A stretch of 42,653 nucleotides of DNA from assembly GCA_964563895.1 (NCBI GenBank), contig CAZLYY010000001.1:9112-51764 (forward strand). Direction: 5' to 3'. A program made the position numbers and the translations under genes. Positions 23,794-36,925 of this stretch are shown piece after piece. Within the stretch, counting starts at the first letter, position 1. The number at the start of each line of letters is the position of its first letter. The DNA is from an uncultured Christensenella sp. Its GTDB lineage: Bacteria > Bacillota > Clostridia > Christensenellales > UBA1242. The notes below the pieces were generated by a model, which saw only the letters and a program-made list of their open reading frames with translations, had not been told where the DNA came from and ran no database searches.

Positions 23794-23823
23794 TTGCAAA
23801 AAGATAATAAAAAGGGAAAAATT

Positions 23824-24195: not shown

Positions 24196-24207
24196 AAGGA
24201 GAATAAA

Positions 24208-24774
24208 ATGACCGTATTAGAATTGTTAAAGATAGCAAGCAATTATCTTTCTATTGATAAGGAACTTCAAATTTTTTTTGAAGAAAGTGATACAAGCAGT
24301 GCAACCGATGAAGCAAAAAGCAAATTTAACAAACTTTTGCTTAGTTTCAACAATATTATAAACGAAATTGCATTGCACAAAGCACCAACAAAAACTATTG
24401 AAGTTGAGACTTCTTTTGGCTTAAACGAGATTGATTTAAGTGCTCAAAATTGCAACAAAGTGTTAAGTGTAAAATTAAAAAACGGCAAAAGATTGACCTT
24501 TTTACAAACAGGGCAGGTTGTTGTTTTTGATTGTTTGTCAAGAGAAAAAGTTTTGATAGAATACTCCTTTATTCCCAAAATTTACAAGGCGGACGACAAT
24601 CTTGATATTTTTACAAACATAGGCAATAGACTTCTTGCCATAGGTATTGCAAGCGAGTATTGCTACCTTGACGAAGTTTTTGACGATGCAAAAGAGTTGA
24701 GAGAAGAATTTGAAAAAGGTTTAAAGTCTATCCTTACAAAAAATGGTTTTATGCAAGGGAGAAATTTTGTATGA
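24208..24774 (+). CDS. Candidate head-to-tail adaptor (position and size equivalent to P22 gp4)
   Basis: 188 aa with SD aaaaggag. Its 4-nt ATGA overlap with the next ORF implies coupling. Assigned only from gene order (TerL-portal-scaffold-coat-gp4-gp10 in P22) and size (gp4 is ~166 aa). Confidence 0.35.
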   Translation: MTVLELLKIASNYLSIDKELQIFFEESDTSSATDEAKSKFNKLLLSFNNIINEIALHKAPTKTIEVETSFGLNEIDLSAQNCNKVLSVKLKNGKRLTFLQTGQVVVFDCLSREKVLIEYSFIPKIYKADDNLDIFTNIGNRLLAIGIASEYCYLDEVFDDAKELREEFEKGLKSILTKNGFMQGRNFV

Positions 24775-26228
24775 CATTAAAGAAAAATAAAATAGTTTAT
24801 AAAAATTTTTCACAAAACTTTAATTTTGATGATAGTGAATATCTCACTTCAACAAATTGCAGTTTAAAGTACAATGTTCAATCTTCAAAAGGGTATTTGA
24901 CCGAAGGGAAAGGACTAAAAAAACTATGCTTGCCATTTTTTTATCCAACAGTCCCAACCGAAGTTGAAACATCTTCTCAAAATTTCAATTTTGTTAGGAT
25001 TTGGTATTATTCTTATTATAGTGAAACGGATAAAAAGCAAAAATATTTTATGATTGCATTTGGCAACGACAATTATTTATATTATTCAAATTTGCATACA
25101 CACGCAGGGAAGTTTTACAAAATCCCCAATTGTTCGGCATTGTCATCTGTGCCAGATACAATCAACTTTATGTTAGGCACCGACTCTGTCATTGGTTTTG
25201 CATCAACAACAGACAATCTTCTTGTATGGTATTGCGACAAAGACCCTTACTTAGCCAAAAACACACCACGTTTCAAATCTATTTGTTTGCATGGGGATAG
25301 ACTTTTTGCCATTGATGCAGATGAAGATAATGTTGTGAGATATAGCGCCACCTACAACCCGCTTGACTGGAAAAAGGATATTTCTTCTTCCGAAGACGCG
25401 GACAAAATCACACTCAATGACTACAAAAGCAATTTGCAAAAATTGGTGTCCTTTAACGATTTTGTTTATGTCTTTCACGACTATGGCATATCCAAAATTA
25501 CAAGTTACAATTTAACCAAAAAATTTTATTGCACAAACATTTACAACACAACTAGCAAAATTTATACCAACACAGTTTGTGTATGTGGAGAGTATATCTA
25601 TTTTTTGCAAGAAGACGGCTTGTATAGGTTGGATAAAACAGATATAAAAAGAATAGATTTCAAGTTTTCCGACCTTTTTATGCACAATCAAGACGAAGCA
25701 AATAGTTGCTATTTTGATGGAAAATATTATCTTGCTTGCAAACTTGACTTTAATGATGGGGAAGAATCTACATACAACAACTCTCTTGTAGAATTTGATT
25801 TTGAAAACAACGAATTTAACATAATAAAAGGCATTGATATAGTGTCTATGCTACCAATCAATATATCTGGTGTAAACAAAATAGTTATTGCAAGGCGAGA
25901 TAAAAATATTTTGTACGAACTCACTTCTACTTCACAAATAGACTCACTTGCTACATTTAAATTTTGGCAAAGCGGACAAATAACTTTTGGAACAATTGAT
26001 GACAAGAAAATAATAAAAGATTTGCATATTTACTCAAAATATGATTGCGATTTTACAATCACTTCAAATAAAAAAACTTTTAAGTTTTCTATCAAAGGGC
26101 AAGACAAAATTCAACGTGTGCCGATTAATCTTGTGGGGAATGAATTTAAGTTTTCTTTGTCATCTACCGCAGATAAAATGCTTATAAAATATCTTGAAAT
26201 AAATTATGTTACAAAAAGTTATGATTAA
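24771..26228 (+). CDS. Candidate tail hub/nozzle or DNA-stabilisation protein (position and size equivalent to P22 gp10); beta-rich and repeat-like
   Basis: 485 aa (P22 gp10 is ~472 aa). It is rich in Y/F/N/D beta-strand-like repeats (DFVYVFHDYGISKIT, GEYIYFLQEDGLYRLD, DGKYYLACKLDF), which suggests a beta-propeller or beta-sandwich. No sequence-level identification. Confidence 0.35.
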   Translation: MTLKKNKIVYKNFSQNFNFDDSEYLTSTNCSLKYNVQSSKGYLTEGKGLKKLCLPFFYPTVPTEVETSSQNFNFVRIWYYSYYSETDKKQKYFMIAFGNDNYLYYSNLHTHAGKFYKIPNCSALSSVPDTINFMLGTDSVIGFASTTDNLLVWYCDKDPYLAKNTPRFKSICLHGDRLFAIDADEDNVVRYSATYNPLDWKKDISSSEDADKITLNDYKSNLQKLVSFNDFVYVFHDYGISKITSYNLTKKFYCTNIYNTTSKIYTNTVCVCGEYIYFLQEDGLYRLDKTDIKRIDFKFSDLFMHNQDEANSCYFDGKYYLACKLDFNDGEESTYNNSLVEFDFENNEFNIIKGIDIVSMLPINISGVNKIVIARRDKNILYELTSTSQIDSLATFKFWQSGQITFGTIDDKKIIKDLHIYSKYDCDFTITSNKKTFKFSIKGQDKIQRVPINLVGNEFKFSLSSTADKMLIKYLEINYVTKSYD

Positions 26229-26328
26229 AAAAATGTAAAAATCTTTTATTCTTAAAAATTATGTTCAAAAAAGTTTATTGTGTTGTAGTCTTTTGTTTTT
26301 ACAACAAAATGTTAAAAGGAGACAAAAT

Positions 26329-26406
26329 ATGGATAAAGAAAAATTTGACGAAAAGGAAATCAAGGAAGAGTTTATGAAACTCTTGATAAAACTTGGATTA
26401 TACTAA
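26329..26406 (+). CDS. 25-aa micro-ORF with a strong SD upstream of the holin-like genes
   Basis: aaaaggagacaaaatATG; MDKEKFDEKEIKEEFMKLLIKLGLY*. It stops 1 nt before the ATG of the next gene. Confidence 0.3.
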   Translation: MDKEKFDEKEIKEEFMKLLIKLGLY

Positions 26407-26407
26407 T

Positions 26408-26629
26408 ATGTGGGAAGAAATCTTTAATCAAGCGACTACAAATGGAATATGGGCGGTGCTTTTTGTTGGTTTGCTATTTTTCATCTTGACGGATAGTGCA
26501 AAACGCGAGAAAAAGTATCAAGAAACCATTGCAAAACTCAATTCACACCTAGATTGTGTGGAAGATATAAGAGACGAAATAAAAGAAATAAGGACATCAC
26601 TTATTAAAAAAGGAGATGTTAAAAATTGA
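26408..26629 (+). CDS. BhlA/UviB-family holin-like protein
   Basis: MWEEIFNQATTNGIWAVLFVGLLFFILTDSAKREKKYQETIAKLNSHL... has a single N-terminal TM followed by a charged coiled tail. This matches the layout and local motifs of SPbeta BhlA and C. perfringens UviB as I recall them (...GPFAVLFCWLLFYVMKTSKERESKLY...). Confidence 0.6.
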   Translation: MWEEIFNQATTNGIWAVLFVGLLFFILTDSAKREKKYQETIAKLNSHLDCVEDIRDEIKEIRTSLIKKGDVKN

Positions 26630-26988
26630 AAGATTCAAAAACAAATTTAGATGAAAACATTCAAGACACAACACAAGACACAGAACAAATTTTGGGGAAC
26701 ACACTTGACAATGACACGCAAGAAGAAAAGCCAACTTTCAACCCAAGCAGTTTATCTTTTTGGGTGGGACTTATAGCCATAATTTTAGGAACGCTTGAAG
26801 CATTTTTAATTGCTTTCAATGTCCAACTTGAAATAAACCTTTTGGTTGAAGGTGTGTCGACAATTCTTTTTGCTTTTGTTTGTTTTGGTGTTTTAAAAAC
26901 AAACAACAAAGTTATAACAAAAGACGATATAAAGTCTTCTCTTGAAGAAAATTTAAAATCAAAGAATAAAGATAAAAACGAAGAATAA
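26626..26988 (+). CDS. Two-TM small membrane protein (holin-like/antiholin-like) with an acidic N-terminus and a basic C-terminus
   Basis: The TTG start overlaps the previous stop by 4 nt (TTGA). TM1 is FWVGLIAIILGTLEAFLIAF and TM2 is VSTILFAFVCFGVL, followed by a charged C-terminal tail. Confidence 0.45.
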   Translation: MKDSKTNLDENIQDTTQDTEQILGNTLDNDTQEEKPTFNPSSLSFWVGLIAIILGTLEAFLIAFNVQLEINLLVEGVSTILFAFVCFGVLKTNNKVITKDDIKSSLEENLKSKNKDKNEE

Positions 26989-27078
26989 TCAATTTATAAA
27001 AACATTGCAAAATCACGACAAATTAAATTGATTTTTCAAATTAAAAATTTGAAATAAAAGTTTTTCGCAAATATTTAT

Positions 27079-27141
27079 AAAAAAGGACAATAAATCAAGG
27101 AAAATATTTTGGTTTTCCAGCGGTTTGTTGTTCTTTTTTTT
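27079..27141 (+). terminator. Compound hairpin with T-run closing the island operon
   Basis: The outer arms aaaaaaggacaa (27079-27090) / ttgttctttttt (27128-27139) enclose the inner hairpin ggaaaa (27099-27104) / ttttcc (27113-27118). Confidence 0.35.
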
Positions 27142-27368
27142 GTGCAAAATTTATTGTGTAATTTCAATATTTTTTCATTTTAAAATTTACTGCTAATTTT
27201 AAATTAAAGATTGATTTTCCCCAAAATTTGTATTGTTGTTTATTTGCTTGCTTTTTTTTGTTGTTTCAATATAATAAAAGTATGTATGGTTGCGTGTAAG
27301 TTTTTTTGCAACTGCATTTAAAATTTTTATTGTTGGATATTATATGAAGATTTCAAAGGGAATTAAAT

Positions 27369-28310
27369 ATGATTTTTAGAAATACTTTTAGGTTACTTTT
27401 AAGCAATTTTTCCAATGTTTGGAAAATGCTTGTTTATTATTGTATTTGTGTTGCGTTGACTTTTTGTGTTTGTGGTGTGCTTATTCACCCTATTATTGTA
27501 AAATTGTCCGAAGCAAATGTCTTTCAAGATTTTGCAGAAGCGGTAAACGGCTTGTTTTCCGCCACACCTACAACAACCGCAATTTCTTTGCAAGAAGTAG
27601 GACGTGTTGCTTTGTCAATTCTTTTGTCAAAAGAGTTGGTTGCCAATTTTATAATTTTGTGTTTTTGGCTTGCTATTGTTTTTCCTTTTACATTAGATTT
27701 AGCACAACTTCCTATGGGGGAAGTGTTGTATGGATATATGAGTAGTCAAACAAAATATGGCTTTACAGGTCGTTTTATAAAGACTATTGGCAAGAGTGCG
27801 GAATATAGCATTATTAGGATTTTTATGACATTGCTATTCAATGCATGTATTTTGGGGTTGACTTATTTGATAGTAAAGATTGCAACATATGGCAATCCAC
27901 TCTATTTAGGGCTAGATATTCTTTTGTTGGCGGTTATGTTTGTTGTCGTTGCACTCAAATATTCACTTCTTTCTTGTTGGATGCCTGCAATTTCCGTTCT
28001 TGATATGGGTGTTTTTGAAGCATTACGTCAAAACTTTAGATGTATTTCTAGACGTTTTGGAAGTATCTTTTCCAATTGTTTGCTTCTTGTTATGTCCGCT
28101 TTTGTATTCAACCTTATTTTTGGTGTGTTTTCATTTACCGTTTCATTTGTCGTATCATTGCCACTCACCGCATTTGTTTTTGTAGTTTTTCAAATGGTTA
28201 GTTTCTTTTCTGTACAAGGAATGAGATTTTATGTCTATCCTGATTTGTTTATTTCTCCTAAAACTTTTGAAGAATCTCTCAGCGTTGACGACTCAAAATA
28301 TATCATTTAA
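27369..28310 (+). CDS. Polytopic membrane protein of unknown function (about 6-7 TM helices)
   Basis: 313 aa made of successive hydrophobic segments (MLVYYCICVALTFCVCGVLI, FIILCFWLAIVFPF, IFMTLLFNACILGLTYLIV, ILLLAVMFVVVAL, LLLVMSAFVFNLIFGVFSF...). No catalytic motif recognised. Confidence 0.5.
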   Translation: MIFRNTFRLLLSNFSNVWKMLVYYCICVALTFCVCGVLIHPIIVKLSEANVFQDFAEAVNGLFSATPTTTAISLQEVGRVALSILLSKELVANFIILCFWLAIVFPFTLDLAQLPMGEVLYGYMSSQTKYGFTGRFIKTIGKSAEYSIIRIFMTLLFNACILGLTYLIVKIATYGNPLYLGLDILLLAVMFVVVALKYSLLSCWMPAISVLDMGVFEALRQNFRCISRRFGSIFSNCLLLVMSAFVFNLIFGVFSFTVSFVVSLPLTAFVFVVFQMVSFFSVQGMRFYVYPDLFISPKTFEESLSVDDSKYII

Positions 28311-28323
28311 TTATAAAAAACTC

Positions 28324-28352
28324 TTGACAAGTTTGGTTTAATTGGTTAAACT
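28324..28352 (+). promoter_or_regulatory. Sigma-A-type promoter (TTGACA-17-TAAACT) that would give rnj a ~300-nt leader
   Basis: TTGACA at 28324-28329, a 17-nt spacer, and TAAACT at 28347-28352. Confidence 0.4.
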
Positions 28353-28494
28353 TTCTTAAAGTAAATTAACTTAGGTTGAAACATTTATATTTTTATATAA
28401 ATGAAAATATACTTTATTACAATCAAATATATAAAAGCAAATAAGGGTTTGTTTGTTTTTATGTTTGTGTAATATGTTTTATAAAATAGGGAAC

Positions 28495-28596
28495 GGGTGC
28501 CTTTTTGTCTACCACAAAAATTGTGGTAGACTCCCGCAATTTGCTTGACGCAAATTGCGTAAAATTTAAACTCCGTTTAAATTTAAAAAGGCACCC
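28495..28596. repeat. Nested-palindrome 'cloverleaf' element A (four-way junction) in the rnj leader
   Basis: Closing helix gggtgccttttt (28495-28506) / aaaaaggcaccc (28585-28596), 12 bp perfect. Hairpin 1: 28507-28531, 11 bp perfect, loop aaa. Hairpin 2: 28535-28559, 10 bp perfect, loop ttgac. Hairpin 3: 28562-28584, 10 bp perfect, loop tcc. Junction linkers are 0-3 nt. Confidence 0.8.
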
Positions 28597-28656
28597 TTGT
28601 CCTACAAAACTTGTTTAGTTTATTAAAAATAAATATAAAAAAATAAAAGGAAAATT

Positions 28657-30780
28657 ATGGAAGAAAATAAAAGAAATTTTTGGGTGCCAGCGATGAGCAA
28701 CAAACGCACCACGTACAGTTCTGATGTTGATAGCAAGAACGACCACTCATCTACATCAGCAAAACAAAACATTAAAAAAAATGTTAAAGTAGAAGCAAAG
28801 ACTCAAAAAAATGAAAAGATTGCTTCTCAAAAGAAGTCGTCAAAACCAAAGGAAAACAAAACCAATAAAGTCCAAAAAACTACTACCACAAAGCCTTCAC
28901 CAAAGAAGTCTTTGAATAGTACTGGTTCAAAAAAGACAACAAATAGGGGTAAAAAGTCAACTAATACACAAGTCAATTTGACCAACGACCAAACTCTTTC
29001 ATTGAAGAATTTGAGTGCAAGAAAAAAGAATAATGACAAAAAAGACCTTTTTTCTGACAATATCACATCTGACCGCACAGAAAAATCTTTGATAGAAAAG
29101 AAACAAATTCCAGACCTTGGCAAATCAAATTTGCGTATCACTTTTATTGGCGGAATTGGCGAAATTGGCAAAAATATGACCGTTCTTGAATATGGCGATG
29201 ATATGATTATGATTGACGCAGGGCAGTCTTTCCCAGACGAAACTGCTCCTGGGATAGATTCTGTTGTGCAAGACCTTAGTTATGTAGAAGCAAACAAGAA
29301 AAAACTTCGTGCTATTTTTATAACTCACGGGCACGAAGACCATATTGGCGGACTTTGGTATGCTTTAAAAACTGTCAAAGCACCAATTTATGGTTCCGCT
29401 GTTTCTTTGGGACTAATTGAAGGCAAACTTGCCGAAGCGAAAGAACTTGATGGCACTGTTCTCAAATGTGTCAAAGCAGGCGCAACTGTTAGTGCAGGAA
29501 AATTTAAAGTGGAATTTGTTTCAATGACTCACTCCATTCCGGGTGCATTTGGGCTTGCAATTACCACTCCTGTTGGTACGATTTTCCATACAGGCGATTT
29601 CAAAATTGACGCTACTCCAATAGGCAATGATTATTGTGATTTAAAGCGTATTGCCGAACTTGGCAAAAAGGGTGTTTTGCTCCTTATGAGTGATAGCACC
29701 AATGTTGAAAGACAAGGTTTTTCTCTTAGCGAATCCGTTGTTGGAAAGACTTTCAAGCAACTTATTTCCAATTATAGAGAACAAAGAATTATCATTGCGA
29801 CATTTGCTTCAAACATTCATAGATTGCAACAAATTGCTGATTTTGCAAAGGAATTTAATAGAAAAATTGCATTTACAGGTAGAAGTATGCGCAATGTTTC
29901 CGAAATGGCTATGAAAATTGGCGAACTTCATTGTGATAGAGATTTGATTGTTGATATTGACAAAATTGACAAATACGAAGACAAGGAAATTATCATTATA
30001 TCCACGGGTTCACAAGGCGAAGTTATGAGTGCTCTCAATCGTATGGCACTTGACGACTATCCAAAGATTAAACTTGGGGATAACGATGTTGTTATTTTGT
30101 CTTCATCTCCAATTCCAGGAAATGAAAAACAAATAAACAATTTGATAAACCAACTTTATAGAAAGAATTGCAAAATTATTTACAACGAAATAGCCGAAGT
30201 CCACGCTTCTGGGCACGCTTATAAAGAAGAACTTAAAATTATTTTATCTCTTGTAAGGCCAACTTTCTTTATTCCTGTCCATGGGGAATATAGACACCTT
30301 AAAAACCAACAACTTTTAGCCAAAGAAATGGGTATGCCAGAAAGAAATATTATTATTCCAGAACTTGGTATGCAAGTGGAAGTTGCAAAAGATTTCATCA
30401 AGGTTGCAGGGCAAGTGCCAGCAGGCGATGTCCTTATTGATGGAACAGGTCGTGGCGACAAAGATAGCGATGTTATTCGTGATAGACTTTATCTCGCAAA
30501 AGAGGGAATGTGTGTCGTTGTTATAAAAATTGATGAGAATTCAAAACAAGTTGTAGCAAAACCAAGAATATATTCTCGTGGATTTATTTATAAAGATGAG
30601 TTAAATGAAATTTTGACTGGCTCACAAGATTTTATTTTGGAACAACTTGCACTTGTAGATTTGAAAGCCTTTGAAAGCACAAGAGAAATAGAAGCCTATG
30701 TTAAAAAGATAGCACTTTCTTATTTTTCAAAACATACCAAAAGGCGTCCAATGATTGTTCCTATTGTTATGGAAGTGTAA
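28657..30780 (+). CDS. rnj: Ribonuclease J (beta-CASP metallo-beta-lactamase RNase) with a ~157-aa Lys/Ser/Thr/Asn-rich N-terminal extension
   Basis: The core starts at NLRITFIGGIGEIGKNMTVLEYGDDMIMIDAG. It includes HITHGHEDHIGG (HxHxDH), the beta-CASP region and EVHASGHAYKEEL. SD aaaagg precedes the ATG at 28657. Confidence 0.93.
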   Translation: MEENKRNFWVPAMSNKRTTYSSDVDSKNDHSSTSAKQNIKKNVKVEAKTQKNEKIASQKKSSKPKENKTNKVQKTTTTKPSPKKSLNSTGSKKTTNRGKKSTNTQVNLTNDQTLSLKNLSARKKNNDKKDLFSDNITSDRTEKSLIEKKQIPDLGKSNLRITFIGGIGEIGKNMTVLEYGDDMIMIDAGQSFPDETAPGIDSVVQDLSYVEANKKKLRAIFITHGHEDHIGGLWYALKTVKAPIYGSAVSLGLIEGKLAEAKELDGTVLKCVKAGATVSAGKFKVEFVSMTHSIPGAFGLAITTPVGTIFHTGDFKIDATPIGNDYCDLKRIAELGKKGVLLLMSDSTNVERQGFSLSESVVGKTFKQLISNYREQRIIIATFASNIHRLQQIADFAKEFNRKIAFTGRSMRNVSEMAMKIGELHCDRDLIVDIDKIDKYEDKEIIIISTGSQGEVMSALNRMALDDYPKIKLGDNDVVILSSSPIPGNEKQINNLINQLYRKNCKIIYNEIAEVHASGHAYKEELKIILSLVRPTFFIPVHGEYRHLKNQQLLAKEMGMPERNIIIPELGMQVEVAKDFIKVAGQVPAGDVLIDGTGRGDKDSDVIRDRLYLAKEGMCVVVIKIDENSKQVVAKPRIYSRGFIYKDELNEILTGSQDFILEQLALVDLKAFESTREIEAYVKKIALSYFSKHTKRRPMIVPIVMEV

Positions 30781-30794
30781 TAAATTGTTGATTG

Positions 30795-30930
30795 AAAGGG
30801 AGCGGACAGGCGCTTGCGAAAATGTGCATTTTCACAATCGCCCCACCCCCTTTTTTCAATTTGAAAAATTGAAAAAGGGGGAACAAAAGTTTTTGGCATT
30901 GGCGCAAAAACTTTTGTGTCCGCTCCCTTT
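30795..30930. repeat. Nested-palindrome 'cloverleaf' element B immediately after the rnj stop; its closing helix plus T-run probably acts as the rnj terminator
   Basis: Closing helix aaagggagcggaca (30795-30808) / tgtccgctcccttt (30917-30930), 14 bp perfect, then TTTT. Inner hairpin 1: 30809-30842 (ggcg/cgcc plus gaaaat/attttc). Hairpin 2: 30846-30881, 14 bp with a 1-nt bulge (cccccttttttcaat/attgaaaaaggggg). Hairpin 3: 30884-30916, 12 bp perfect (caaaagtttttg/caaaaacttttg). Confidence 0.8.
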
Positions 30931-30958
30931 TTTATCAAACAAAACTTCCTTGCACTAC

Positions 30959-30986
30959 TTGACAAAATCGTCAAAATAAGTATAAT
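30959..30986 (+). promoter_or_regulatory. Sigma-A-type promoter of rnpB (TTGACA-16-TATAAT)
   Basis: TTGACA at 30959-30964 and TATAAT at 30981-30986, about 8 nt before the start of the P1 helix. Confidence 0.6.
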
Positions 30987-30994
30987 ATCTAAAC

Positions 30995-31409
30995 CTAGGT
31001 GGACAGGTGGTCGCAAGCTAAATATGGTGTTTAGTTTGAGGAAAGTCCGAGCTTCATTGGACTAGGGTGCTGAGCAACTCTCAGTGGAGGCAACTCTAAG
31101 GAAAGTGCAACAGAAATAAACTACGGCATCAAATTTTGTTGTAAAAAGTGTTTACATTTTGCCTTAATAGTGCTGTGCATGTAGTTAAGGGTACAACAAA
31201 TAGCCGTAAAAGGTGGAAAGGCGGGGTAAGAGCCCACCGGCAAATTGGCGACAATTTGTGCTATGTAAACCCCACTTGAAGCAAGATTAAAAAGGAACGT
31301 AATGCGTAGTCCTGCTAGTTCCTTTAAAAGTATCGCTTGAGCATATTGGCAACAATGTGCCTAGATAGATGACCACTTAATACAGAACTCGGCTTACAGT
31401 TCACACTAG
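30995..31409 (+). ncRNA. rnpB: RNase P RNA (bacterial, type B-like)
   Basis: Universally conserved GAGGAAAGTCCGAGC (P4 5' strand, ~31040) and ACAGAACTCGGCTTAC (P4 3' strand, ~31382). The P1 pairing ctaggtggac (30995-31004) / gttcacactag (31399-31409) includes G-U pairs, and GGTAAGAGCCCACCG is a J11/12-P12 type string. About 415 nt with its own promoter and terminator. Confidence 0.9.
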
Positions 31410-31410
31410 C

Positions 31411-31446
31411 AAAATATCTCACAGTTTTTCTGTGAGATATTTTTGT
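31411..31446. terminator. Bidirectional terminator shared by the convergent rnpB and sigK
   Basis: An 11-bp perfect stem, atatctcacag (31414-31424) / ctgtgagatat (31430-31440), with loop ttttt, an A-run upstream and a T-run downstream. Confidence 0.75.
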
Positions 31447-32148
31447 TTAATTTTTAAAAGGATTATCTTTTCCAATTTTTTCTCTTATTTCTTCAATTGC
31501 TTTTTTTTCAAGTCTACTTATGTACGACCGCGAAATATTGAGTTTTTTAGCAATTTCTCTTTGCGCATAAATTGGAGTGTTGCCAAGCCCATATCTCATA
31601 GATAAAATTTGATATTCTCGTTCGTTTAATGTGTCTTTTGCAAGATTAATCAATCTTTCGGTTAAAACAGAATTTTCAACATTTTCAATCACGTCTTCAT
31701 CGTTTGGAATAATATCTTGCAACGAAACTTCATTGCCGTCTTTATCTTTTCCTAGTGTTTCGCTAAGGGACATAACTTGTGTGTGTTTTTTGTTGACTCT
31801 TAAAAGCATTAAAATTTCATTTTCAATACAACGTGCCGCATAGGTAGAGAATTGTGTATTTTTGCCATATTCAAAAGTATTGACCGCTTTGATAAGCCCA
31901 ATAGAACCAACAGATATAAGGTCATCACTTTCAGCAGAACCCCCATATTTTTTTGCAACATGTGCAACAAGTCTTAGGTTGTGAGAAATGAGTTTTTCTT
32001 TTGCCTTTTTATCCCCATTTTTATATCTTCTAAAGTACTCTTTTTCTTGCTTTTCTTCAAGTGGTTTTGGAAAATTTGAAGCATTATTGACATAGGCAGA
32101 AAAAAGCATAATTTTATTCATAAAAGCCATAAAACTCTCAACAATCAT
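31447..32148 (-). CDS. sigK: Sporulation sigma factor, pro-sigma-K type (uninterrupted)
   Basis: A pro-sequence-like hydrophobic N-terminus, then NASNFPKPLEEKQEKEY, NLRLVAHVAKKY, DLISVGSIGLIKAV, STYAARCIENEILMLLR, GKDKDGNEVSLQDII and QREIAKKLNISRSYISRLEKKA. NLRLVAH, YAARCIENEILM and QREIAK..ISRSY match SigK better than SigE as I recall both. Confidence 0.7.
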   Translation of the reverse strand: MIVESFMAFMNKIMLFSAYVNNASNFPKPLEEKQEKEYFRRYKNGDKKAKEKLISHNLRLVAHVAKKYGGSAESDDLISVGSIGLIKAVNTFEYGKNTQFSTYAARCIENEILMLLRVNKKHTQVMSLSETLGKDKDGNEVSLQDIIPNDEDVIENVENSVLTERLINLAKDTLNEREYQILSMRYGLGNTPIYAQREIAKKLNISRSYISRLEKKAIEEIREKIGKDNPFKN

Positions 32149-32218
32149 ATATCAACTCCCTTATCTATACTTTTATGTTGAAATTTGTCAAAATTTGCTT
32201 GTCCAATTGTTTTTTGTG

Positions 32219-32249
32219 AATATATGGTTGTCATTGGCACAAAAATATG
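32219..32249 (-). promoter_or_regulatory. Candidate mother-cell (sigma-E/sigma-K type) promoter of sigK
   Basis: The minus strand reads tcCATATTt-17 nt-CATATATTc. -35 CATATT is complement 32244-32249 and -10 CATATATT is complement 32219-32226. This resembles the sigma-E consensus (ATATT-like -35, CATACA-T -10), about 60-70 nt upstream of the ATG. Confidence 0.35.
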
Positions 32250-32291
32250 GACTTTTTGACCTAAATATTGTTGTTGGAGTTTAATTGGTCG

Positions 32292-32405
32292 CGGGGGAGC
32301 GGGCAACGAGCCAAATGGCTCGTTCGTCCGCTTGCCAGCCCCAAAACGGGCTTGCAAGCGGGCGTGTCAAGGCTTTGCACCCCAAAGCCTTGACGCCCGC
32401 TCCCC
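32292..32405. repeat. Nested-palindrome 'cloverleaf' element C, a GC-rich island in the sigK/rarA divergent intergenic region
   Basis: Closing helix gggggagcgggc (32292-32303) / gcccgctccccc (32394-32405), 12 bp perfect. Hairpin 1: 32304-32323, 8 bp (aacgagcc/ggctcgtt). Hairpin 2: 32327-32360, 14 bp with one C-T mismatch. Hairpin 3: 32365-32393, 12 bp perfect (gtcaaggctttg/caaagccttgac). The closing helix shares GGGAGCGG with element B. Confidence 0.8.
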
Positions 32406-32466
32406 CTTATGCAAAGTTATTTTTTAAATAAAAATCATTTGTCAATTTCAATTATTTAATAAAACT

Positions 32467-32494
32467 TTGACTTTTTGTTATGTTGTGATAATAT
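32467..32494 (+). promoter_or_regulatory. Sigma-A-type promoter of rarA (TTGACT-16-TGaTAATAT)
   Basis: TTGACT at 32467-32472, TG at 32486-32487, and TAATAT at 32489-32494. It lies downstream of element C. Confidence 0.45.
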
Positions 32495-32534
32495 TTAAAT
32501 AAGGGATAAAAAGATTTCAAGGAGACAAATAAAA

Positions 32535-33773
32535 TTGGACAACCTATTTCAAAATTTATACAACGATAAAAAACCTTTGGCAGAAAAAATGCGACCAACA
32601 AATTTGGACGAATTTGTAGGACAAAAGCACATTTTAGGGAAAGGGAAATTGCTCTATAGACTTATTGAAGCAAAAAGAGTGCCAAGTGTTATTTTTTACG
32701 GGCCTCCAGGGACAGGCAAAACAACTCTCGCTCAAATAATTGCAAACACGAGCAACTCAAAATTTGTCAAACTCAATGCGATTTCAAATGGTGTCGCAGA
32801 TGTAAAAGCGGTTATTGACCAAGCCAAAAAAGATTTTGAATTGTATGGGCAAAAAACTTATCTTCTTCTTGACGAATGTCATAGGTGGAGCAAGGCTCAA
32901 AGCGATTCACTTTTATCTTCTCTTGAGAATGGTTATCTTCTTTTTGTTGGGTGTACAACTGAAAACCCAAGTTATAGTATGACCAGAGCAATAGTTTCTA
33001 GATGCTCGGTTTTTGAGTTTAAAAGGTTGGGCGAAGAAGATATAAAACTTGTTTTAAATAGGGCATTGAATGCCGAAAATGGGCTAAAAGCATACAATGT
33101 CAAAATGGACGATGAAGCCCTAAACTACATTGCTTCCGCTTGTGGCGGTGATGTGCGAAGTGCCTTGAACGGCCTTGAACTTGGCGCAATAACAACTCCC
33201 AAAAATAAAAATAAAGAAACAATTATTACCAAAGAAATATTGGCAGAATGTTTGCAAAAGAAAGCAACAACTTTAAACGAAGATGTGTATTACGATTTGC
33301 TTAGTGCTTTTTGCAAAAGTTTGCGTGGAAGTGATTCAACCGCGGCCTTGTATTATGCCAATAGACTTATTGAAGGTGGAATAGAACCACAAGTGCTTGC
33401 AAGACGCACAATTTGTCATGCTAGCGAAGATGTTGGCTTTGGAGCACCTATGGCACTTTTGCAAGCGTGTGCCGCATTGTATGCCTTGGACAATCTTGGT
33501 ATGCCAGAAGGCAATTTGGCTTTAACTCAAGCCATAATTTATGTGTGCGAGTCGCCAAAAGACAATAGGGTAGTTGTAGCAATGAATAGGGCACAAGATG
33601 ATGCCAAAAATCACCCAGACGACAATATTCCGCCATATCTTAGAAACCACACCCCACAAAGCAAATTTTACAAATATCCGCACGATTATGGTGGATATGT
33701 GGAGCAACAATATTTGCCAAATAGTTTAAAGAATAGAAAATATTTTGAAAGGAAAACCTCTAAAAAAGACTAA
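32535..33773 (+). CDS. rarA: Replication-associated recombination protein A (RarA/MgsA, AAA+ ATPase)
   Basis: TTG start with SD aaggag. PLAEKMRPTNLDEFVGQKHILG, Walker A GPPGTGKTT, Walker B LLLDECHRW, the MgsA C-terminal region YYDLLSAFCKSLRGSD..AALYY, and HASEDVG. Confidence 0.9.
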   Translation: MDNLFQNLYNDKKPLAEKMRPTNLDEFVGQKHILGKGKLLYRLIEAKRVPSVIFYGPPGTGKTTLAQIIANTSNSKFVKLNAISNGVADVKAVIDQAKKDFELYGQKTYLLLDECHRWSKAQSDSLLSSLENGYLLFVGCTTENPSYSMTRAIVSRCSVFEFKRLGEEDIKLVLNRALNAENGLKAYNVKMDDEALNYIASACGGDVRSALNGLELGAITTPKNKNKETIITKEILAECLQKKATTLNEDVYYDLLSAFCKSLRGSDSTAALYYANRLIEGGIEPQVLARRTICHASEDVGFGAPMALLQACAALYALDNLGMPEGNLALTQAIIYVCESPKDNRVVVAMNRAQDDAKNHPDDNIPPYLRNHTPQSKFYKYPHDYGGYVEQQYLPNSLKNRKYFERKTSKKD

Positions 33774-33906: not shown

Positions 33907-34611
33907 ATGAAAATAAAAAATAGATTTTTTAGTATTGTTTTTGCAGTTTTACTTGTGTTGCCTATGATGTGTTTGCTAAGTGGCTGTGGCGGAGATGAAC
34001 CTATCCCAAAAGAGTATGCTTGGGGTAAAACCTTTAGTTATCAAGGTGTGTTTGTTGCTAACAAAGGACAGTATGGTATGGGCGGGACCCCTTATGGCGA
34101 ATTGCTAAAAAGTGAGTATAACAAGAATAATATTGATTTAGAAAAAGTGACTATAAATGGGGAAACAAAGGATTTGACCTCGGCTTGCAAAGGAATGACT
34201 GCGGACGCATTTATCTCACACATTGACAATCTTGCCAAGACAATGTTAGAGAAAAAATATGAAAATTTTGTTGTAAAGGTCGGTAGTGAAGAAGAAAAAA
34301 CAGTAACAATAAACAACACAACATACAATTGCGTTTTGCAAGGCGGAGATTATTATAATATAAAAGAAAATGACAACAATGTTGGTGGTTTTAATTCTTT
34401 AATTTCCCTAGACGTTGACGGCAAAACAAAGGGGTGCTTGAATTTGAGTTATAATAAATTTCAAGATACTTATTATAATATTTCAATGAGTTTCCCAACA
34501 ATAACGATTTGCAATGATGCCTCGGCAGATAAAAATACCAATGGAGATGAAGTTGAATCGACTTCAATTAGTATTCAATACTATCCATATTTAAGTAAGG
34601 TAAGCGAATAA
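33907..34611 (+). CDS. Lipoprotein of unknown function
   Basis: Signal peptide with the lipobox LLSGC (MMCLLSGCGG). 234 aa with SD aaagggg. Confidence 0.6.
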   Translation: MKIKNRFFSIVFAVLLVLPMMCLLSGCGGDEPIPKEYAWGKTFSYQGVFVANKGQYGMGGTPYGELLKSEYNKNNIDLEKVTINGETKDLTSACKGMTADAFISHIDNLAKTMLEKKYENFVVKVGSEEEKTVTINNTTYNCVLQGGDYYNIKENDNNVGGFNSLISLDVDGKTKGCLNLSYNKFQDTYYNISMSFPTITICNDASADKNTNGDEVESTSISIQYYPYLSKVSE

Positions 34612-34690
34612 TAAGTAAAAATTGATATATTTAAAATTTGAAAACAAGTATGAAAAGTATCTTGAAATTATAAAGAATTAAGTTTTGAAC

Positions 34691-34745
34691 AAAAAAATAC
34701 CACAAGAATTGGGGTGAACCCCAATTATCAAGTGGTATTTTTTTA
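34691..34745. terminator. Bidirectional terminator between the lipoprotein gene and tex
   Basis: The outer stem ataccac (34697-34703) / gtggtat (34732-34738) and the inner stem aattgggg (34707-34714) / ccccaatt (34719-34726) are flanked by A7 and T8 runs. Confidence 0.7.
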
Positions 34746-34753
34746 TAAAAATT

Positions 34754-36925
34754 TTAGGCTTGCGACACTTCTTCATCAACAGCTTTGCGAATAGAAAGTC
34801 CAATGCGTTGCTTTTGAAGGTCAATATTGATTATCTTTACTTTTACAATATCCCCAACAGAAAGTTCTTCGCTTGGGTGTTTGATAAATCTATCGCAAAT
34901 CTCGCTTATATGTACCAATCCGTCTTGGTGAACACCAATGTCCACAAAAGCACCAAAGTCAATAACATTTCTCACTGTTCCACGCATAATCATTCCAACT
35001 TTTAGGTCTTCTATGCTCAAAACGTCGCTTCTAAGTTCAGGTTTTGGCAAATCATCACGAATATCTCGCCCTGGTTTTAAAAGTTCCTTGACAATGTCGT
35101 CTAGGGTAGGGACACCAACACCACATTCGCTAGCGACTTTTTCTTCGCCTTTTGCGCCAATAAGTCTAGGCAAGTCTGCCATTGCTTCTGTCCCAATATC
35201 TTTTTCCGTCATATTAAACATTTTCAAAAGTTTTTCGGTGGCGGAATAACTCTCTGGGTGAACACCTGTATTATCCAAAATGTTTTTTTCGTTTGGAATA
35301 CGAAGGAAACCTGCACATTGTTCATAGGCTTTTGCACCCAACTTGTTTACTTTCAAAAGTTGGTTACGAGTGGTAAATTTGCCATTTTCACGCCTAAAAT
35401 CAACAATGTTTTTTGCAATAGAAGCATTGAGTCCTGATACGTGTTCAAGAAGTTTATAACTTGCTGTGTTTAGGTCAACCCCTACTGAGTTGACGCAATC
35501 TTCCACAACCCCATCAAGCACAGTCGACAACCTTTTTTGTGGCATATCGTGTTGATATTGTCCAACACCAATAGATTTGACGTCAATTTTGATGAGTTCG
35601 GCAAGTGGGTCTTGTAGACGTCTTGCAATACTTACGGCACTTCTTAGACTAACATCATAGTCAGGGAATTCTTCCGCCCCCAACTTGCTTGCACTATATA
35701 CACTTGCACCTGCTTCGTTTACAACCATATATTGCACCTTTCTATCAAGTTTTTTGATAAGGTTGCTTACAAAAATCTCACTTTCCTTGCTTGCCGTTCC
35801 ATTCCCAATAGAAATAGCATCAACATTATGCTTTTTGACAAGGTCTGAAATAATTTCTTCACTTTTTTCAATTTGATTGTGTGGTGGGGTAGGGTAGATA
35901 ACTGTTTTATCAATAACATTCCCATTTTGGTCAATAACAGCAACTTTGCAACCAGTTCTATATGCTGGGTCAAGCCCCAAAATAACCTTATCTTTCAAAG
36001 GTGGTTGCATAAGAAGTGGTTTTAGGTTGACTTCAAACATTTTTATTGCTTGTTCGTTTGCTTTGTCTGTAAGTGTTGTCCTAAGTTCTCTTACAAGGGA
36101 AGGTTCAATAAGTCTTTCAAAACTATCTTTTACAACTTCTTTTATGAAATCTTCATAAGAACCATTTTTGACCAAAACTTCATCTAAAATAAGTTCTTCG
36201 CATCTTTCAAAATTTGTTTCAACATCAACTTTCAAGCAATCTTCTTTTTCGCCCCTATTTATAGCAAGTATTCTATGGCTAGGAATTTTGTTTACAGGTT
36301 CTTTGTAGTTTTCATATGTTTGATAAACAAGATATTTTTCGCCTGGCTTTAATGTCGTTACAATTTGAGCGGAATCATAAATAAATTCTCTCAAAGTTTT
36401 TCTTATTTCCGCATCATCGCTTATCATTTCTGCAATAATGTCGCTAGCACCAGCAAGTGCTTCTTTTTCGTCTTTTACACCCTTTTCTTCGCTAACATAA
36501 TCTTTTGCAAGTTCTTCCAAAGTGTGTTTATCTTTTTGTTTAAAGATAATTTCCGCAAGTGGTTTGAGCCCTTTTGCTTCTGCAATGGTTGCCCTTGTTT
36601 GTCTTTTTGGCCTAAATGGTCTATAAATATCTTCTAGTTCGGTTAGGGTAAGGGCTTTGTTTAATTTATCCATAATTTCAGGCGTCATTTTTTCTTGCCC
36701 TTCAATGAGTTTTACAATTTCTTCTTTTCTTTTTTCAAAATTTCTCAAATAGTCAAGTCTGTCTGCAAAATCTCTTATAATTTGGTCGTCAAGACTGCCG
36801 TGCATTTCCTTTCTATATCTTGCAATAAAGGGAACGGTGCAACCTTCGTCCAATAAATTTATAATATTGTTTGCATAGTCAAGCCTAATGTTAAATTCCA
36901 AACTTAATGCTTTTGCAATGTCCAT
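34754..36925 (-). CDS. tex: Tex-like transcription accessory protein (YqgF/HhH/S1 domain RNA-binding protein)
   Basis: LLDEGCTVPFIARYRKEMHGSLDD near the N-terminus, a YqgF-like region (VILGLDPAYRTGCKVAVID) and a C-terminal S1 domain (GMIMRGTVRNVIDFGAFVDIG...DGLVHISE). I chose the ATG at 36925 (SD aaagga) over the TTG at 36949. Confidence 0.9.
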   Translation of the reverse strand: MDIAKALSLEFNIRLDYANNIINLLDEGCTVPFIARYRKEMHGSLDDQIIRDFADRLDYLRNFEKRKEEIVKLIEGQEKMTPEIMDKLNKALTLTELEDIYRPFRPKRQTRATIAEAKGLKPLAEIIFKQKDKHTLEELAKDYVSEEKGVKDEKEALAGASDIIAEMISDDAEIRKTLREFIYDSAQIVTTLKPGEKYLVYQTYENYKEPVNKIPSHRILAINRGEKEDCLKVDVETNFERCEELILDEVLVKNGSYEDFIKEVVKDSFERLIEPSLVRELRTTLTDKANEQAIKMFEVNLKPLLMQPPLKDKVILGLDPAYRTGCKVAVIDQNGNVIDKTVIYPTPPHNQIEKSEEIISDLVKKHNVDAISIGNGTASKESEIFVSNLIKKLDRKVQYMVVNEAGASVYSASKLGAEEFPDYDVSLRSAVSIARRLQDPLAELIKIDVKSIGVGQYQHDMPQKRLSTVLDGVVEDCVNSVGVDLNTASYKLLEHVSGLNASIAKNIVDFRRENGKFTTRNQLLKVNKLGAKAYEQCAGFLRIPNEKNILDNTGVHPESYSATEKLLKMFNMTEKDIGTEAMADLPRLIGAKGEEKVASECGVGVPTLDDIVKELLKPGRDIRDDLPKPELRSDVLSIEDLKVGMIMRGTVRNVIDFGAFVDIGVHQDGLVHISEICDRFIKHPSEELSVGDIVKVKIINIDLQKQRIGLSIRKAVDEEVSQA

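Follow-up and report, generated by a model that had tools for sequence, protein, structure and literature searches.

Position and anatomy of the elements

The window, as the whole 42.6-kb stretch of DNA analysed here is called, comes from an uncultured gut Clostridia genome and carries three intergenic elements, A, B and C, in the neighbourhood of rnj (encoding RNase J), rnpB and mgsA. Element A (28495-28596) lies upstream of rnj, which starts at 28657, and downstream of a conserved promoter-like site at 28324-28352. Its closing helix, formed by GGGTGCCTTTTT (28495-28506) and AAAAAGGCACCC (28585-28596), surrounds hairpin 1 (28507-28531; 11 bp, loop AAA), hairpin 2 (28535-28559; 10 bp, loop TTGAC) and hairpin 3 (28562-28584; 10 bp, loop TCC), and an imperfect extension of the outer palindrome spans 28487-28604. 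Between the rnj stop codon (30778-30780) and a perfect-consensus rnpB promoter (30959-30986) lies element B (30795-30930), 15 nt from the former and 29 nt from the latter. The closing helix of B, AAAGGGAGCGGAC (30795-30807) with GTCCGCTCCCTTT (30918-30930), encloses a first hairpin of 15 positions with two mismatches and the loop GTGC (30809-30842), a second of 16 bp with the loop GAA (about 30847-30881) and a third of 13 bp with the loop GCATTGGCG (30883-30917); TTTTTT follows this helix (T-run 30928-30933). Element C (32293-32406) lies between a conserved block upstream of a sigma gene and a conserved mgsA promoter-like site (32467-32494), and would be untranscribed judging from promoter positions predicted by consensus matches and conservation. 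Here, GGGGGAGCGGGC (32293-32304) and GCCCGCTCCCCC (32395-32406) close hairpin 1 (32305-32324; loop AAAT on 8 bp), hairpin 2 (32325-32364; loop CAAAAC, with a single T.G pair and a single C.T mismatch in the stem) and hairpin 3 (32366-32394; 12 bp, loop CACCC). A and C have no U-tract.

In minimum-free-energy folds, each element forms a 12-13 bp closing helix with exactly three hairpins, as a sequence-only reading had proposed. The coordinates in that reading hold for A and B, while C, which it placed at 32292-32405, is shifted. The helices are almost wholly Watson-Crick paired, with 47-61 such pairs and 1-2 single mismatches per element. Where near-perfect hairpins had been described, B hairpin 1 has two mismatches. 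Palindromy in A and B runs about 5 bp past the closing helix. GC content is 0.39 in A, 0.44 in B and 0.67 in C, against 0.33 for the window; C is indeed two-thirds GC, but A, at 39%, is not especially AT-rich as had been suggested. The closing core that the same reading attributed to both B and C was recovered, as all four occurrences of GGGAGCGG or its complement in the window fall within the closing arms of these two elements.

The folds lie far beyond chance. With RNA parameters on the + strand, the energies of A, B and C are -54.4, -75.4 and -93.6 kcal/mol (z of -10.3, -9.8 and -11.6), none of 200 shuffles matched these energies, and the - strand folds equally well. DNA parameters gave the same folds (z of -10.8, -9.4 and -11.3), and over both strands and either parameter set z ranges from -9 to -13. 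A sliding scan with 150-nt segments over the full 42.6 kb ranks the elements as the three most stable (-94, -74 and -61), and the next segment is at -45. A custom nested-palindrome detector found only A, B and C in the window; clean three-hairpin elements numbered zero in 2.1 Mb of viral contigs and one in 0.97 Mb of diverse Clostridia contigs. Across 26 variants, each element keeps 38-61 Watson-Crick pairs with few mismatches (G.T about 6, A.C about 3, other about 7), among which G.T is not commoner. This strand symmetry of pairing is as expected for DNA palindromes. No Rfam match at E up to 10, no tRNA match by ARAGORN and no riboswitch match was obtained for A, B or C, consistent with the earlier view that they are neither tRNAs nor riboswitches.

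Relatives and dispersal

Orthologs of A occur upstream of rnj in four other genomes (L001, L002, L110 and L107), and the surrounding rnj leader is alignable in three species. These copies retain hairpins 2 and 3, with the hairpin 3 sequence AAATTTAAAC-n3-4-GTTTAAATTT conserved in five species, and their closing helix and hairpin 1 have been replaced with complementarity kept. In L107, the interior of the element is inverted. A second set of four copies, termed type-1 (L005/L358 and L112), aligns over its whole length, and RNAalifold predicts the four-way fold for these copies too, 12 of its 40 pairs showing compensatory changes. The 5' closing arms of the elements have GGGRGC in common, extended in A-type and type-1 copies to a common GGGRGCC-TTTGTGC.

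A covariance model, R1, was trained solely on the four type-1 copies, which come from genera other than that of the window. C and A are its best matches in the whole window, C with 45.1 bits (E 2.4e-9) on the - strand and 32.1 bits on the + strand, and A with 34.4 bits (E 1.4e-6); B reaches just 15.9 bits (E 0.077). R1 also matches the A elements of L107 and L110, and additional elements from L361 and L049 have the same architecture. All clean multibranch elements encountered have three hairpins, no more and no fewer, and the polarity of the closing helix is always 5'-G-rich to 3'-C-rich. In B and in the three L005 copies, the hairpin nearest the 3' end of the sense strand is the CAAAAGT-like one.

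Judged from these orthologs, type-1 relatives and model matches, A, B and C belong to one lineage-restricted family of uncultured Christensenellales-like Clostridia, in line with the single family proposed earlier, and they correspond to no described repeat or RNA family. The accompanying claim of unrelated stem sequences is not supported in that form, since GGGRGC is common to the closing helices, hairpins 2 and 3 of A are kept in orthologs and type-1 copies align throughout. Given these common arm motifs, conserved hairpins and full-length alignments, the architecture can probably be explained largely by common descent and arm homogenisation, without selection on the fold.

The family is dispersed and varies in presence between relatives. 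B is missing from L107, L001 and L002, relatives with about 80% RNase J identity, and C from L002 and L107. B is an insertion relative to L107, which has no terminator-like sequence at all at that position, and is present, with variants, in every strain contig covering the site. Type-1 copies occupy non-orthologous sites: those at position 13292 of L005 and position 3480 of L112 have 86% identity across 131 nt, a stretch that takes in a 25-nt tail on one side, while the RNase J proteins of L005 and L112 are 53% identical. The corresponding site in L006 is empty and holds an ordinary terminator. Further copies and presence/absence between relatives are the outcome that the sequence-only reading had named as supporting a REP/MITE-like family. 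No direct-repeat target-site duplication accompanies the supposed MITE terminal inverted repeats at the two sites with an empty-site comparison. As that reading had noted for the vicinity, transposase, HUH and RT domains are absent from the 30 window ORFs scanned, and also from precomputed Pfam listings for genes within about 10 kb in eight related genomes. No excision footprint was found either, and mobility is proposed from the distribution of the copies. Density is low in the stretches examined: the 42.6 kb of the window hold 3 copies, and stretches of 14-22 kb from relatives hold 0-3.

The positions of the copies give no consistent role in transcripts. Two L005 copies start at the stop codon of the upstream gene, another (L005-3939) is located behind an ordinary terminator, and orientation relative to neighbouring genes differs among copies, being flipped in L107 and L112.

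Strain polymorphism

Among the 5-7 strains compared, paired columns are 4.7% variable, similar to flanking intergenic DNA (4.9%) and below third codon positions (7.0%), whereas the figure for unpaired columns (loops and linkers) is 41.7%; relative to flanking intergenic DNA, this is an odds ratio of 13.7 (p 3e-14). Within the species, loops change at about six to eight times background and stems at background. The loops of three ordinary hairpins from the same strains are invariant, in a small control set of 13 loop nucleotides. The comparison of L002 with L110 repeats the pattern, with 50% of loop, 23% of flanking and 11% of stem positions variable. Paired positions co-vary among strains in the series C-G / T.G / T-A and G-C / A.C / A-T.

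Some loop differences are inversions. The loop of C hairpin 1 is AAAT or ATTT in different strains, an exact reverse complement, and the two loop states combine with SNPs 12-15 nt away in all four possible gametes. In hairpin 2 of A, the loop reads either TTGAC or GTTAA. The polymorphism pattern favours a DNA-level process, and the RNA-stability and enzyme-substrate roles raised by the sequence-only reading are possible alternatives.

Known systems and possible origins

REP, BIME and REPIN elements are found in Proteobacteria and are mobilised by RAYT, a Y1 HUH transposase. A REP consists of a single imperfect hairpin (20-40 nt) whose head, GTAG or CGTC, is conserved, and REPs occur in hundreds of near-identical copies together with a RAYT gene. 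The likeness lies in short intergenic palindromes that fold as ssDNA and often exceed the genome in GC content; they are dispersed, lineage-specific and non-coding, and some have been taken over as terminators or as stabilisers of mRNA 3' ends (PMC3116915, PMC3333891, PMC3733652). The present elements differ in their four-way junction of 80-140 nt, GGGRGC ends, highly diverged copies and low density, and no Y1/HUH gene lies in any neighbourhood examined. Bacterial MITEs are flanked by direct-repeat target duplications, carry an interior that comes from a parent IS and resemble one another in sequence. Correia, RUP, bcr1 and Nezha are comparable in size (80-150 bp), terminal inverted repeats (here the closing helix), intergenic location, presence/absence between relatives, strong predicted fold and occasional stop-codon overlap; here, by contrast, the two sites compared lack a target-site duplication, the interior is built of three perfect palindromes independent of one another, and little beyond the closing arm is common to the copies.

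The GC clusters, double-hairpin and repetitive hairpin-forming elements of yeast, Allomyces and sponge mitochondria are likewise GC-rich, hairpin-forming and mobile in AT-rich genomes, scattered between genes and defined by fold over sequence, and their mobilising enzyme is not known (PMC4478555, PMC2800124). However, they belong to organelles, have one or two hairpins and frequently come with a short target duplication, whereas the elements studied here lie on a bacterial chromosome and combine a closing helix with exactly three hairpins. In the parvovirus (AAV) ITR, an outer A-A' helix surrounds the B-B' and C-C' hairpins with 3-nt loops, in flip or flop orientation; AAV ITRs and Streptomyces telomeres are ends of linear replicons that serve in priming, end-patching and Rep nicking. 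Both resemble the present elements as nested palindromes forming T-, Y- or cloverleaf junctions in ssDNA, and flip/flop recalls the loop and interior inversions. The elements here differ in their internal chromosomal location and three, not two, inner hairpins, with no Rep or terminal protein nearby. Among RNAs, tRNA and the SAM-I and cobalamin riboswitches also have a closing helix with three hairpins, and hairpin clusters have been proposed as terminators (PMC8355165). Relative to four-way-junction RNAs, the present elements have perfectly paired stems of two to three times the length, no junction or loop nucleotides are conserved, the antisense fold is equally good, and ARAGORN and Rfam give no match.

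Several explanations can be weighed. Chance palindromes or ordinary intrinsic terminators without family relationship would fit the abundance of hairpins in AT-rich genomes and the stem and T-run of B, but this account is effectively refuted: the elements are the three most extreme folds of the window, controls gave none in 2.1 Mb and one in about 1 Mb, closing-arm motifs and modules are common to copies with orthologs and paralogs in relatives, R1 recovers A and C, and T-runs are missing from these two. It is also improbable, though less so, that these are host-selected dsDNA or cruciform sites, either bound by a junction-, hairpin- or palindrome-binding protein, with each hairpin a palindromic operator-like site, or absorbing supercoils to tune promoters. 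Strand symmetry agrees with this, as does the location of C between divergent promoters, where negative supercoiling accumulates (the twin-domain model); A hairpin 3 is kept in five species like a dimer binding site, and the 5'-GGG polarity suggests sequence-specific recognition. However, hairpin sequences other than A hairpin 3 are unconserved between copies, leaving no common operator, B and C are dispensable in close relatives, contexts are unrelated, no candidate binding protein is linked to the elements, and hypervariable loops are unexpected if contacted by protein.

A more serious contender, though still unlikely, is that the elements are functional structured RNA modules, in which the transcribed four-way junction would be a very stable block or processing signal preserved by selection on RNA pairing. 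A would then control or protect the RNase J mRNA from its 5'-UTR, B would serve rnj as terminator and 3' protector, and other copies would be 3'-UTR caps. The retention of A between promoter-like site and start codon, B with its T-run right after the rnj stop, the L005 copies at stop codons and the 3'-most CAAAAGT-like hairpin are in keeping with such roles, as are several stem mismatches that are G.T on the sense strand (hairpin 2 of L110 and of L361, strains L018 and L020). On the other side are the lack of an Rfam match, helices nearly without G.U pairs, the equal antisense fold, the flipped orientations in L107 and L112, the locations of C between conserved divergent promoter regions and of L005-3939 past a terminator, and the absence of U-tracts from A and C. 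At the B site, L107 is without a terminator-like sequence, so that B is dispensable there. RNA modules also predict slow stems and neutral loops, whereas stems change at background and loops six to eight times faster.

The preferred reading, to which about half of our confidence goes, is that of a REP/MITE-like repeat, dispersed and acting at the DNA level, whose nested palindromes are kept perfect by template switching within a strand. Two papers describe template switching between inverted repeats, or quasipalindrome mutagenesis, as a documented DNA-level process yielding multinucleotide changes, which homogenises arms and inverts spacers and so predicts perfect arms, co-varying pairs and reverse-complemented loops (PMC8604942; PMC7202029). 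As a mechanism and not an element family, it leaves dispersal, the constant count of three hairpins and the G-rich/C-rich closing polarity unexplained, and the hypervariable loops may instead be due to diversifying selection or to ectopic conversion from unseen paralogs. The long retention of A in the rnj leader also speaks against this reading.

Under the preferred reading, all copies would probably derive from a single founder with a 5'-GGGRGC closing helix around three hairpins, and each strand, in single-stranded or supercoiled DNA, could fold up into a four-way junction with all arms paired. One palindrome arm would be copied onto the other, by intrastrand template switching or by repair templated on a hairpin, putting substitutions into both arms, so that sequence drifts while pairing stays Watson-Crick. 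The same switching would invert spacers, giving loop flip-flop and whole-interior inversion, and unpaired loops and linkers would be mutation hot spots. New intergenic sites and other genomes may occasionally gain copies, no transposase having been found nearby. A copy inside a transcription unit would present a very stable fold open to host use, as may have happened with B, which is shaped like an rnj terminator, and with A, whose retention in the rnj leader across five species with a conserved hairpin 3 points to a probable host function at that site.

Architecture and genomic setting of the elements

The sequence-only reading had described three nested palindromes, each with one closing helix around exactly three hairpins, and this architecture was borne out when positions 28300-32600 were read and their folds computed. 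Element A (28495-28596) is closed by the helix GGGTGCCTTTTT / AAAAAGGCACCC and carries hairpins at 28507-28531, 28535-28559 and 28562-28584, while element B (30795-30930) is closed by AAAGGGAGCGGAC / GTCCGCTCCCTTT, with hairpins at 30809-30842, about 30847-30881 and 30883-30917, and element C (32293-32406) by GGGGGAGCGGGC / GCCCGCTCCCCC, with hairpins at 32305-32324, 32325-32364 and 32366-32394. With RNA parameters, the + strand energies of A, B and C are -54.4, -75.4 and -93.6 kcal/mol (z -10.3, -9.8 and -11.6), and the - strand folds equally well (z -10.5 to -12.8). DNA parameters reproduce the same folds, with z of -9.4 to -11.3. A 150-nt sliding scan places A, B and C as the three most stable stretches in the window, the next reaching -45 kcal/mol, and a purpose-written detector found no further multibranch nested palindromes there. 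The GC content is 0.39 in A, 0.44 in B and 0.67 in C, compared to 0.33 in the window.

Closing arms are perfect over 11-14 bp across the copies of the family, and arms overall span 6-17 bp. In every copy the closing helix is G-rich at its 5' end, the reverse never being seen; the 5' closing arms have GGGRGC in common, and GGGRGCC-TTTGTGC in the A-type copies and in the sequence-related type-1 copies of other genomes. The closing-helix core proposed to be common to B and C also held, as GGGAGCGGRC is shared by the closing arms of the two elements, and wherever GGGAGCGG or its complement appears in the 42.6 kb (four times), it is a closing arm of B or C. Every clean multibranch element found has exactly three hairpins.

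The window comes from the chromosome of an uncultured Clostridia bacterium. A phage-like cluster (18451-28310, with terminase, portal, major head protein and holin genes) precedes A, which is followed by the RNase J gene, rnj (28657-30780, + strand), so that rnj stands between A and B. Beyond B come the RNase P RNA gene, rnpB (class A, 30995-31413, 252 bits in Rfam), a gene for a 233-aa sigma-70-family factor (31447-32148, - strand), element C, and the gene for MgsA/RarA (32535-33773, + strand). As a conserved promoter-like site, TTGACA-17-TAAACT, is found upstream of A, this element is probably within the rnj leader. Element B follows the rnj stop codon and precedes an rnpB promoter with a perfect consensus; it fits the form of an intrinsic terminator (GTCCGCTCCC after rnj, with TTTTTT following the closing helix). 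Element C is located between a block conserved upstream of the sigma gene and a conserved mgsA promoter-like site, and consensus matches and conservation place it probably outside both neighbouring mRNAs. No T-tract is present at A or C on either strand, and all three elements went unlisted by a terminator scanner whose loop limit is 3-8 nt.

Copies in related genomes and relation to known families

Orthologs of A occur upstream of rnj in relatives with RNase J 78-82% identical, at the same site and with the same architecture, in four contigs of related genomes: L001 (1516-1620), L002 (about 5751-5850), L110 (9753-9846) and L107 (9830-9931). The hairpin AAATTTAAAC...GTTTAAATTT is kept in the A elements of all five species and the hairpin GCAATTTGC in those of three, and the closing helix and hairpin 1 are wholly different in each species, with each arm still complementary to its own partner. 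The A-type closing arms are GGGTGCCTTTTT, GCGGGAGACCTTTG, GTGGGCGCATTCA and GGAGCCCTGTG. Relative to rnj, the hairpins of L107 run in the opposite order, indicating that the interior of A is inverted there. The helices of the A orthologs vary in length and sequence and are misaligned by MAFFT and RNAalifold; hence no covariation count is given for A. Directly after the ortholog in L002 is a short tandem array (5848-5893) of about three units of ACTACTACTAACC, which is absent from the window and L001.

Elements B and C are absent at the corresponding sites of L001, L002 and L107 and, by this comparison, are lineage-specific. Only about 40 nt separate the rnj stop codon from the rnpB -35 element in L107, so B is an insertion of about 150 nt relative to that genome. 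No direct-repeat target-site duplication surrounds B when it is compared with the empty site in L107, and its right flank, ATCAAACAA, approximates an inverted copy of its left flank, TTGTTGAT.

The type-1 copies lie at non-orthologous sites, three of them in L005 (= L358), a contig of a more distant genome with 28% GC (3939-4032, 9790-9895 and 13292-13392), and one in the related contig L112 (about 3484-3589). All four are alignable over their full length, and RNAalifold returns a four-way fold with double compensatory changes in 12 of 40 pairs. The L005 copy at 13292 and the L112 copy share 86% identity over 131 nt, a stretch that takes in a one-sided tail of 25 nt, in genomes whose RNase J proteins are only 53% identical. 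The former follows a GDPD gene, the latter lies within the phage-like cluster, and in L006, the sister genome of L005, the site matching L005-13292 is taken up by an ordinary terminator. The similar copies at unlike sites and the empty site in L006 make up the strongest evidence for dispersal or horizontal movement. No direct-repeat target-site duplication was found at the type-1 copy T1c in comparison to the empty site in L006. In L005 (9790-11192, = L358 13748-15117), mgsA is inverted relative to the window, L006 and L107, and where it meets the sigma gene a type-1 element directly adjoins the mgsA stop codon; this palindromic element may mark an inversion breakpoint.

A covariance model built from the four type-1 copies only (R1), run with filters off, puts C, with 45.1 bits (E 2.4e-9), and A, with 34.4 bits (E 1.4e-6), at the top of the whole window, and it also matches the A elements of L107 and L110. 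The family, from Christensenellales-like Clostridia, is defined here by a closing helix of at least 10 bp, usually beginning 5'-GGGRGC, exactly three near-perfect hairpins, linkers of 0-4 nt and detection by R1; A and C belong to it (34-45 bits, E 1e-6 to 2e-9), and B is borderline, at 15.9 bits, with a closing arm as in C. No significant R1 matches were found in 1.09 Mb of other Clostridia and phage-like contigs, and the controls for clean three-hairpin elements gave none in 2.1 Mb of viral contigs and one in 0.97 Mb of diverse Clostridia. A diverged element (z -8.7) is present in the related contig L361 (18111-18245). A miniature version of this architecture, 81 nt long and GC-rich, is found in L049 (1998-2078), a 57%-GC Clostridia contig, with an 11-bp closing helix, three hairpins of 8-9 bp, zero-length linkers and the loops GAA, GAA and GGC. 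GCGAAGC is a classic ultra-stable DNA mini-hairpin. The miniature may be an independent invention or a distant relative of the family. Among the related contigs examined, both further copies and element-free orthologous sites were seen; the sequence-only reading had held that empty sites without any further copies would point to chance palindromes or ordinary terminators.

The elements do not coincide with known structured RNAs. The Rfam check that had been proposed returned RNase P RNA class A as the sole family, even at E up to 10, and Rfam 15 at that limit gave at most 19.6 bits over the elements within 28400-32500, compared to gathering thresholds of at least 51. The view that they are not tRNAs was upheld, as ARAGORN reports no gene in the window and the arms of 6-17 bp differ from the 7/4/5/5-bp arms of the tRNA cloverleaf, in which nucleotides of the D and T loops are conserved. 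Likewise, no transposase, HUH or reverse-transcriptase domain was found in the 30 window ORFs scanned, as had been stated for the vicinity, nor was a tyrosine recombinase domain. No RAYT or Y1 HUH transposase was found in these ORFs or in the precomputed Pfam listings of genes lying within about 10 kb in eight related genomes, and no insertion sequence was seen in the examined loci. The 234-aa ORF at 33907-34611 was considered as a mobility gene and set aside; it matches neither Pfam nor PHROG, its N-terminus is hydrophobic, and it looks unrelated.

Neither blastn of C against plasmids nor blastn of the whole 3.9 kb against phages gave a relevant match. Pattern scans of IMG/VR with TTTTGTGC..GCACAAAA and GGGAGCGG..CCGCTCCC, in which the closing-arm matches served as a negative control only, yielded no clean three-hairpin fold among the matches listed (at least 120 DNA stretches each). 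In the same database, an 18-mer of the type-1 tail had one match, by chance, the 313-aa protein of the phage-like cluster had no relatives, and the major head protein led to 13 loci with no elements. A metagenome scan with the sigma protein, which served as a control, returned distant Clostridia only (at most 63% identity) and no close relatives, and the two ORFs at the left end of the window had no exact-protein match.

In behaviour, the elements are closest to REP/REPIN and MITE-type repeats. REP/REPIN sequences are single imperfect hairpins of 20-40 nt or inverted pairs of these. They start with a conserved tetranucleotide, GTAG or CGTC, share their genome with a RAYT (Y1 HUH) transposase gene and number tens to hundreds per genome in nearly identical form, whereas the elements are four-way folds of 80-140 nt whose closing arms begin GGGRGC, with no GTAG/CGTC head, and amount to 0-3 highly diverged copies in the 14-42 kb looked at per genome. 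The suggestion of a MITE-like family stands as regards terminal inverted repeats, given the perfect closing arms of 11-14 bp, and fails as regards direct-repeat duplication, which was not seen in either of two empty-site comparisons; in addition, the ends of MITEs match a parent insertion sequence encoding the transposase. Integron attC sites were rejected as a match, being single imperfect hairpins with extrahelical bases, R/L boxes and an adjacent integrase and cassettes, unlike the branched, perfectly paired elements. The shape of the elements resembles parvoviral ITRs and Streptomyces telomere palindromes, though the terminal location of these is lacking. Mitochondrial GC clusters, double-hairpin elements and repetitive hairpin-forming elements are similar in behaviour (PMC4478555, PMC2800124). 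With no GTAG/CGTC head, no RAYT in view, no target-site duplication, no terminal location and no Rfam or tRNA membership, the elements fall outside all compared families and are structured interspersed palindromic repeats in kind.

Sequence variation and possible origin

Where contigs of other samples code for an identical sigma protein and cover the sites, the elements are always present. In an alignment of the window with the strain contigs L017-L022, 14 of 296 paired columns of A, B and C are variable (4.7%), close to the 28 of 566 columns (4.9%) in flanking intergenic DNA and the 73 of 1047 (7.0%) at third codon positions, compared to 25 of 60 columns (41.7%) in loops and linkers. The difference between paired and unpaired positions is strong (Fisher p 1e-12), as is that between loops and flanking intergenic DNA (odds ratio 13.7, p 3e-14). 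The loops of three ordinary hairpins in the same strains, namely the rnpB terminator, the terminator at 34679-34756 and a hairpin upstream of A, are invariant. The same order is seen between species, where L002 and L110 differ at 50% of loop, 23% of flank and 11% of stem positions; this pair alone makes up the between-species loop test, the pairs within L107-109, L110/111, L112/113 and L361/362 being 99.8-100% identical.

Changes in stems and loops follow distinct patterns. Hairpin 2 of C shows co-varying series with both intermediates (C-G / T.G / T-A and G-C / A.C / A-T), and hairpin 1 of B shows the series C-G / C.T / A.G. Single helix mismatches comprise about six G.T, three A.C and seven others, with no clear strand bias. 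The loop of C hairpin 1 reads AAAT in five strains and its exact reverse complement, ATTT, in four. The strains contain every one of the four gamete combinations that this loop can form with SNPs at a distance of 12-15 nt, suggesting that inversion has recurred. In hairpin 2 of A, the loop is TTGAC or its near reverse complement, GTTAA.

As described in PMC8604942 and PMC7202029, intrastrand template switching at inverted repeats homogenises the arms and inverts the spacers. Strand symmetry, Watson-Crick stems changing at the background rate, hypervariable and reverse-complemented loops, and interior inversion together match this outcome and therefore favour an explanation at the level of DNA; selection acting only on an RNA fold would not predict this combination. 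For A, a role in the host as RNA is plausible, since it is retained in a conserved leader with the sequence of hairpin 3 conserved, and a terminator role is plausible for B. The position of C, the placement of L005-3939 after a terminator, the flipped orientations and the lack of B and C in close relatives mean that neither role can hold for the family at large.

We put at roughly even chances the proposal that the elements are DNA-level nested palindromes, in which one four-way palindrome would be the founder ancestral to the copies, self-templated correction would keep the arms of each palindrome complementary, and copies would have spread to new intergenic sites. The DNA would fold in vivo, correction would proceed by template switching, and B, C and the L049 miniature would share descent with the other copies. 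This proposal is silent on the constancy of three hairpins, the G-run start and the movement of copies, leaving room for a dedicated structure-specific enzyme. Such an enzyme, encoded elsewhere, would recognise the fully paired four-way junction with its 5'-GGGRGC closing helix in single-stranded DNA and mobilise the elements within and between genomes, its repeated cutting and resynthesis producing the hypermutation and flip-flop of the loops; a junction-resolving nuclease, an HUH-type nickase or a recombinase would be candidates. We consider this unlikely; if true, bacterial mobile DNA would gain a new class, defined not by its sequence but by a Holliday-junction-like fold.

Bacterial interspersed palindromes of the REP, BIME and MITE kinds are known mostly from Proteobacteria and take the form of one hairpin or of a fragment flanked by TIRs. 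In the present repeat, from a lineage of gut Clostridia, the feature that stays constant is a fully paired four-way junction, and the strains of this lineage offer an unusually clean natural view of palindrome dynamics, with complementary arms changing at the background rate, loops several-fold above neutral, and spacers and interiors inverting. If the pattern holds genome-wide, it would provide direct evidence from population genetics that DNA structures of this kind arise in vivo and undergo concerted evolution, and the hunt for the enzyme or repair pathway behind them would become testable. Because perfect compensatory change is possible without RNA function, covariation screens can mistake such elements for conserved structured RNAs, and the elements may also break or confuse metagenome assemblies and annotation.

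Flanking genes and other folded loci

The RNase J of the window has 707 aa, with a lysine/serine/threonine-rich N-terminal extension of about 150 aa; its length is 709-816 aa in close relatives and the usual 550-553 aa in distant ones of the same clade. The class A RNase P RNA occurs here in a lineage encoding sporulation proteins (YqfD, YabP and a pro-sigma-like factor). Many low-GC Firmicutes have class B RNase P RNA.

The phage-like cluster immediately upstream of rnj spans about 10 kb and encodes a large terminase, a P22-like portal, a major head protein (phrog_14242), a virion structural protein, a BhlA holin and the 313-aa protein. It is also found in the related contigs L002, L005/L358, L006, L107, L110, L112, L359, L361 and L363-L374, its position and order are constant across genomes with RNase J only 52-82% identical, and the same host genes (polysaccharide deacetylase, SSB-like) stand ahead of it in IMG/VR contigs. 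It has the appearance of a domesticated capsid or GTA-like module passed on vertically, and not of a prophage. The SSB-family protein (10549-11190) has 213 aa with an N-terminal extension of about 100 aa, and its gene, just upstream of that of RecJ (11248-13710), is kept beside the cluster in IMG/VR contigs.

Contigs of other strains end about 1-2 kb or less downstream of the last long ORF of the window. The ORF at 33907-34611 is strain-variable, being present in L017 and L019 and replaced by unrelated sequence in L018. Between convergent genes, the nested palindrome at 34679-34756 has a single inner hairpin, AAAAAAATACCAC ... AATTGGGG-TGAA-CCCCAATT ... GTGGTATTTTTTT; it is invariant among the strains having it and looks like a bidirectional terminator. 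In L359, the intergenic gaps within the phage-like cluster are unusually long, and a different, strongly folded two-branch element of 120 nt (CGTCATTCTGAGCGAAGCGAAGAATCCC...) is located at 1830-1949.
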